IMG/VR virus record: IMGVR_UViG_3300023053_000001
Span: 32,001 to 96,000 of that record
Length of the DNA: 64,000 bases
DNA from: a virus
Lineage: Duplodnaviria > Caudoviricetes
Reading direction: 5' to 3' (one strand)
Shown here: in pieces, positions 14,900 to 15,659 of the stretch
How positions within the stretch are numbered: position 1 is the stretch's first letter
Layout of the letters: the number at the start of each line of letters is the position of its first letter
Program-made: the position numbers and the translations under genes
Notes under the pieces: model-generated
Database searches by the model: none
Told to the model about the DNA's origin: nothing
The model's input: only the letters and a program-made list of their open reading frames with translations

Positions 14900-15659
14900 A
14901 AAAAATAACTGCCGTGGTCGATAGTGTAGGAGCAGAGCTTGCCAGCGTGCTCCCAACTGGAACATAGCCGAAAAGAAAGCCATCTAACTCTCCACGAAAG
15001 TAGAGGTTGCTGACCAAGATCCTCGCCGACCTCGAGCCGGCGAAACGCTTGGCGGAACGCTTGAACCGTTGAAGGAGTGGTTAGGGGAACCGACATCCGT
15101 CGACCAGGGCGCCTTTCCAGTTTCGAGGCCGGTCCATCTGCACATTAAAGGGGAAGTGCGACCCTGGAGGTGTGTAGGTGGACAATCTCGATTTCATCGC
15201 AAAAGACATTGATGGCCAGATGCTCGGGTGGCATTGAGCAGTGCACTTACTTCATTCGTGCATTTTTCGGGGGTTCGAGTCCCTCTTGGCCAATCCAGTG
15301 TACTTTGCGATGGAATCCATCTAGCCGCCTACTGACAGAATAAGCGGTCGTCCAGGTAGTGCCTTGCCAGCGATGCAACGCTGGCCCGTACTGAACTGTC
15401 TGCTGTGGTGCCTTTCGAACCGATCTGGGGAGATAGGTTGCACATCACAGAAGTTGTCGCTCAACCGAATGTCATCCATGCGCCGTCCACTTAGTAACGC
15501 CTGAAGCCGACCTACGGGTCTGGTCGATGCCGTGAAGCCTGGCGGGGTGTGAGGTGACGGTAGTTAAGAGTCTTCAGCCTTCAGGGTTTACCGTTAGCCG
15601 CGGCCGCGAGCTTACTGTGAATTCTGCTGGGTGCCGACTTTGTCTCACCAACTTCTGAC
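14900..15659 (+). ncRNA. Candidate large structured ncRNA enclosing a tRNA-like domain (5' limit uncertain, 14900-15100)
   Basis: No credible ORF; many helices including 15195-15203/15304-15312, 15366-15372/15379-15385 and 15556-15562/15589-15595; strong terminator after. Confidence 0.55.
15213..15297 (+). tRNA. Atypical tRNA-like cloverleaf with enlarged anticodon arm; identity not assignable
   Basis: Acceptor tggccag/ttggcca, D stem gctc/gagc, anticodon stem gtgcac/gtgcat with 11-nt loop ttacttcattc, 5-nt variable region, T arm ggggg-ttcgagt-ccctc. Confidence 0.65.

Follow-up and report, generated by a model that had tools for sequence, protein, structure and literature searches.

The window analysed here is a 64,000-nucleotide section (bases 32001-96000) of a virus record that is complete, measures 268,458 bp and carries terminal repeats. 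The source virus is a phiKZ-like, nucleus-forming jumbo phage (Chimalliviridae), as indicated by the phiKZ internal-head domains and the RNA polymerase and tail-sheath families found in the genome. Its nearest named relatives are the Xanthomonas phages RTH11 and LucasX, with 44-45% identity in one core virion protein, and the runs that hold phage sequence are soil metagenomes and metatranscriptomes. The locus of interest belongs to an ORF-poor gap that is larger than any other in the genome. To its left, the minus strand encodes proteins of 71 aa (14281..14496) and 80 aa (14565..14807), the latter kept in close relatives, followed by a conserved minus-strand element composed of a T-run and TACT (14897..14910), which resembles the phiKZ middle promoter and probably serves as the promoter of two divergent small genes. 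On the right, the gap ends in a plus-strand intrinsic terminator (15660..15692) that shows compensatory changes in relatives. Past the terminator, a phage promoter-like motif, TTTnAGA...TATAACA, occurs at 15708-15724 and again at 10894; its five copies in the genome are all intergenic, two of them 57-58 nt before a called gene. The adjoining stretch, 15765-17300, encodes a protein of ~500 aa with a MazG-like pyrophosphatase domain in its N-terminal half, while relatives encode only ~250-280 aa, leaving the C-terminal half as an unexplained extension.

The gap itself holds a plus-strand structured noncoding RNA of ~680 nt (14984..15659; host RNA in the following), with covarying helices and a possible 5' extension to ~14860. 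We found no Rfam match to it up to an E-value of 10, no BLAST match of the region to named phages, and no description of such a family in the literature searched, which left most subscription journals outside its scope. DNA pattern scans for direct homologs returned chance matches only, apart from finding one relative, L080, again. With the 71-aa gene as a synteny anchor, we located the corresponding gap in seven close loci (L075-L081) as well as in the more distant RTH11, LucasX, L082-L091 and G001. The 71-aa protein and the host RNA are not coupled, as two further genomes (G003 and G004) carry both, but apart. In the close group, 94.5% of the cells of the 5' domain were paired and 14 of 47 pairs had changed on both sides, a result equalled by none of 500 shuffles and compared with 33-44% in slid controls; with a structure derived from the same sequences and ~4 lineages only, this covariation is supportive, not conclusive. 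At the other end of the RNA, a hairpin with the pattern CAGCC...CUG.GG (15566..15642) is common to the RNAs of RTH11, LucasX, G001, G003 and G004. A model of this hairpin made from the RTH11/LucasX group only ranked L075, L081 and positions 15566-15642 of the window first and also found the RNAs in G003 and G004; for the 3' module (R2), rough E-values were 0.009 in a 91-kb search and 0.13 genome-wide, where the match was the sole one. The 5'-domain model (R1) did not reach the RTH11/LucasX group, to which the proposed link consists of synteny and one 3' module only. The host RNA is an uncatalogued family of 500-850 nt RNAs that occurs in several Chimalliviridae subclades.

Several members of this family deserve separate mention. 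The cultured Xanthomonas phages contain an unannotated RNA gene (L035:5736-6590 in RTH11 and L033:5173-5985 in LucasX), in which the possibly complementary loops UGCGA and UCGCA suggest a kissing interaction. The G003 and G004 members (L162:1270-1930 and the minus strand of L160, respectively) are structured RNAs of ~650 nt with two CAGCC...CUG.GG modules each, and the small gene is not linked to the locus that encodes them; the module may be akin to a tetraloop receptor. The shortest close homolog (L081:30-628, minus strand) comprises ~600 nt, with much of the 3' variable region gone, and helps to define the minimal core of the host RNA. A second ORF-free structured stretch of the phage, ~800 nt at 56775-57575, opens with the T-run and TAC motif of the G003 RNA, and nhmmer detected no similarity between it and the host RNA.

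Short motif likenesses led us to consider RNase P, group I, group II, permuted group II and tmRNA identities for the host RNA, all of which were rejected since Rfam gave no signal and the motifs are unconserved. In the circularly permuted group II intron layout, a 5' D5 with an AGC triad, five pairs and an AY bulge is followed by D6 and reversed splice sites (PMC8637638). Neither alignment inspection (A2/A4) nor Rfam revealed D5 or D6 in the host RNA, splice joints were absent, and the GUGCG at 15157 is part of the loop of a hairpin. A reverse transcriptase gene was not found in the genome.

The host RNA, cloverleaf (below) included, is likely transcribed. Contigs of three RNA libraries span the cloverleaf unbroken, and contig depth in two runs was 33-45 over the host RNA vs 3-9 beside it; neither this depth nor the stretch 14793-14953, which contigs leave uncovered, is taken here as an expression measure. 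RNA libraries may contain DNA, and contigs drop rare forms and cannot show ends. Two RNA-library contigs stop exactly at 14988, where the DNA run continues, and one contig is joined at this position to sequence that we take to be Illumina adapter. Position 14988 may be a processing site or a library end effect. Since a conserved helix with a compensatory change spans 14984-94, the true start of the host RNA is probably slightly upstream of 14988; the region further upstream showed no promoter motif and contains a conserved covarying hairpin at 14928-53.

Just 3' of a conserved hairpin with the invariant loop AAGUGCGA (15132..15183), the host RNA forms a variable carrier helix (15192..15315; 15192-15211 paired with 15296-15315), whose tip is occupied by a decayed cloverleaf that appears to be tRNA derived (15213..15293, tRNA positions 1-73). 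Its acceptor stem (15213-19/15286-92) has 7 pairs, positions 8 and 9 are A and T, the D stem (15222-25/15236-39) has 4 bp and a 10-nt loop, and A26 lies at 15240. The anticodon arm (15241-15263), 23 nt long, consists of 6 pairs with an 11-nt loop (15247-57) or, equivalently, of 5 pairs with an expanded 13-nt loop (15246..15258) that an extra C-G pair closes to 11 nt; the loop holds TAC, TCA and CAT, with a purine at position 37 in no register. After a 5-nt variable loop follows the T arm (15269-85) with a canonical TTCGAGT loop, and the acceptor/T stack of 12 bp is intact. A73 (15293) is followed by a T and then by CCA at 15295-97, the whole segment 15294..15297 belonging to the 3' strand of the carrier helix. 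When the whole RNA was folded, the acceptor stem formed with pair probabilities of 0.54-1.0 and the other three stems (D, anticodon and T) with 0.75-0.95; C15296 (p 0.79) and A15297 (p 0.99) join the carrier helix as paired bases, and the ends of the cloverleaf are predicted to be paired, not free. A preliminary description of the locus had placed a tRNA-like cloverleaf at 15213-15297 inside a noncoding RNA, and our analysis agrees with it on the acceptor, D, variable and T geometry, the 23-nt anticodon arm with its 11-nt loop, the A at position 8 and the A-TCCA end with a partly paired CCA. It had rightly listed TCA and TAC in the loop but overlooked the CAT.

The cloverleaf is real and neither a sequencing nor an assembly error: its sequence is identical in 8 assemblies, and the 4 runs examined showed no variant, indel or joint there, which excludes the sequencing error considered earlier. 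ARAGORN, suggested as a check in the preliminary description, missed the cloverleaf as it stands, as did Rfam at the gathering threshold, and the tRNA covariance model scored it at 15.6 bits. Every 6-nt deletion that we tried in the loop restored an ARAGORN tRNA call; a low-threshold ARAGORN run gave noise. A relaxed scanner that allows long anticodon loops reported no other site in the genome and not a single one in 60 Markov-random genomes, so the cloverleaf is more than a chance fold.

Compared with functional tRNAs, the cloverleaf has the expected stems of 7, 4, 5 and 5 pairs and the T loop, but where 7 nt with U33 and purine 37 would make up the anticodon loop, 13 nt are present, and the core triple U8, A14, A21 reads A8, G14, U21. 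Given these losses, together with a displaced CCA that is predicted to be paired and no free end in the predicted fold, it would probably be neither charged nor used in decoding, and the earlier verdict that this is not an ordinary tRNA was correct. The preliminary description had also raised the idea of a spliced or recoding tRNA, in which removal of 6 nt would yield a working molecule or the UCA in the loop would read UGA. The CU-UCA of the loop and the restored geometry of the 6-nt deletions speak for this idea, yet A8, G14 and U21 would persist after splicing, 6 nt are too few for a group I or II intron, the loop is without a bulge-helix-bulge, and three RNA runs contained no joints among their contigs, which drop rare forms. 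As to recoding, the UCA is out of anticodon register and not at positions 34-36 of a 7-nt loop (the register set by the D arm yields UAC), no deletion product was read as a UCA tRNA, the long variable arm, 8-bp acceptor and G73 that characterise tRNA-Sec are missing (the variable loop has 5 nt, the acceptor 7 bp, and position 73 is A), and TGA is the stop of 86 of the 214 called genes. We therefore regard a spliced or recoding tRNA as extremely improbable.

We then asked which tRNA the cloverleaf might derive from. Among 130 intact tRNAs, the best match, a CAU tRNA of the Ile2/Met type, came from two gammaproteobacterial genomes and scored 80.5 vs 69.5 for the next (55 of 74 positions identical), in a set that is biased, as the tRNAs came from fetched loci, many of them fetched with a motif from the cloverleaf. 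The likeness extends over the D stem, the anticodon stem, the T loop and the GGCC core of the acceptor, with CAT in the loop, while the 13-nt loop, A8, U9, G14, U21, the missing purine 37 and the embedded position without free ends set the cloverleaf apart. If only the 3' part is compared, the scores of an Asn tRNA and the CAU tRNA are nearly equal. A donor of CAU type is thus a tentative assignment; the exact sequence of T arm plus acceptor is absent from GTDB and IMG/VR, where the direct donor was not found, and no TilS-family gene was found in the phage genome. Relative to a tRNA, the cloverleaf has lost U8, purine 9, A14, A21, purine 37 and the loop size, and has kept the bases of the elbow (G15-C48, G18, G19, G53-C61, U54, U55, C56 and A58) and all 21 stem pairs. 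Its departures from the tRNA consensus add the plain pairs U9-A26, G14-U21 and C32-G38, as expected if only stable folding matters.

None of the 19 homologous loci contains the cloverleaf: they have no paired T arm, no ARAGORN call and no tRNA model match, and their carrier helix ends in a short-loop cap that differs in each lineage. At this site, the relative L080 corresponds to the window minus exactly 15220-15293, with both flanks matching. These 74 nt equal the spacing of two copies of the palindrome TGGCCA (15213-18 and 15287-92), which form the acceptor stem, so that a single crossover or slippage event could interconvert the two alleles. When the 74 nt were excised in silico, all predicted pairs outside them (206/206) were unchanged; the cloverleaf marks an insertion-tolerant arm of the host RNA. 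The genes on either side place L078 next to L080 as its sister (556/570), with the window outside this pair (~86%), but in the segment just 5' of the insert L080 is window-like (206/218, vs 184/217 to L078). The simplest reading of these sequences is a gain in the lineage of the window, with L080 being a recombinant that carries an excised or pre-insertion allele, a direction of change that we infer. The two alleles offer a natural pair with and without the cloverleaf, one 74-nt block apart. Because the T plus CCA are part of the carrier strand and are present in the empty alleles too, the CCA need not be the end of a tRNA.

The distribution among relatives bears directly on the proposal that the cloverleaf is a processing signal, at which RNase P or RNase Z of the host would cut to split or mature the host RNA. 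In elements of the MALAT1/mascRNA type, a conserved tRNA-like fold within a long noncoding RNA is cut by RNase P and RNase Z. The 12-bp acceptor/T stack, the T loop and the CCA that follows are compatible with such a role. However, the cloverleaf is lineage specific, and relatives have the same RNA without it in all 19 loci, which means that the host RNA does not need it. In addition, leader and trailer pair with each other, beginning two bases ahead of the acceptor stem, an arrangement poorly suited to cleavage by RNase P, and RNA contigs cross both ends, a weak argument given that contigs cannot show ends. Taking both sides into account, a processing signal appears highly unlikely.

We consider it probable that the cloverleaf is a captured and decayed tRNA, tolerated as a self-folding passenger at a peripheral site. 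The starting point would have been a once-normal class I tRNA gene, probably with the anticodon CAU, which, in the lineage of the window only, ended up in the loop at the tip of a peripheral helix of variable length and then decayed. The cloverleaf would now probably be transcribed within the host RNA and fold alone, with the rest undisturbed; a single event at the 6-bp palindromic repeat of its acceptor stem could add or remove it. Pseudogenisation, which the preliminary description mentioned only as grounds for refutation, fits the data best, although the relatives show no tRNA at all instead of one with a normal 7-nt loop. The cloverleaf is probably without a function of its own, a statement limited by the single insert-bearing allele known; against the passenger reading, the intact 21 stem pairs and the elbow bases could reflect selection.

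This last point touches on the mimic or decoy that had also been suggested. In its lineage-specific form, a recently acquired mimic of the tRNA elbow on a large RNA would bind a reader of tRNA shape without any decoding, candidate targets being a tRNA-targeting defence nuclease, RNase P and the L1 stalk of the ribosome. The elbow bases and all stems are kept, the losses are concentrated in two places, the 8-14-21 triple and the anticodon loop, and the cloverleaf occupies an exposed position at a helix tip that is covered by RNA-library contigs. On the other hand, this pattern of retained and missing bases was recognised only in hindsight, and the absence from every relative leaves no conservation behind the elbow. 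A normal anticodon stem-loop is what PrrC, colicin D/E5, VapC and similar anticodon nucleases recognise, and it is precisely this part that is destroyed here. Such an elbow mimic is conceivable but unlikely, and a mimic needed by the host RNA disagrees with the 19 of 19 loci without one. It is tempting to speculate further that the grafted tRNA, having kept the elbow surface only, acts from its ornate RNA as an uncleavable and unchargeable mimic that sequesters a host tRNA-recognising factor or a defence nuclease, a version that we rate as unlikely.

Compared with known large phage RNAs, the captured and decayed tRNA has its closest counterpart in GOLLD (RF02032), which shares the large size, the covarying structure and an optional tRNA in a variable internal part; some GOLLD RNAs contain tRNAs in their variable linker (PMC12286853). 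In contrast to GOLLD, neither this genome nor four relatives matched the model with its conserved 3' core, and here a decayed tRNA is found at a helix tip in a nucleus-forming jumbo phage, with no tRNA island nearby. ROOL (RF03087) is likewise an ornate phage RNA of ~600 nt whose function is unknown, but it is often located near tRNA islands, while the one intact tRNA of this genome (Leu) is 114 kb from the cloverleaf; ROOL matches were absent up to E 10 in a cmscan here and up to E 1 in the homologs, as well as in one further search, run without a positive control. Homo-oligomeric nanocages are a hallmark of GOLLD and ROOL. These comparisons suggest that a second class of large phage RNA, unrelated to GOLLD, is able to acquire tRNA modules within a variable arm, and the uncatalogued host RNA is more interesting than the cloverleaf. 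As members of its family are present in the cultured Xanthomonas phages RTH11 and LucasX, laboratory study is possible. Separately, the RTH11 genome contains at least 13 clustered tRNA genes at 73.6-76.9 kb (L171), which are unannotated in its GenBank record.
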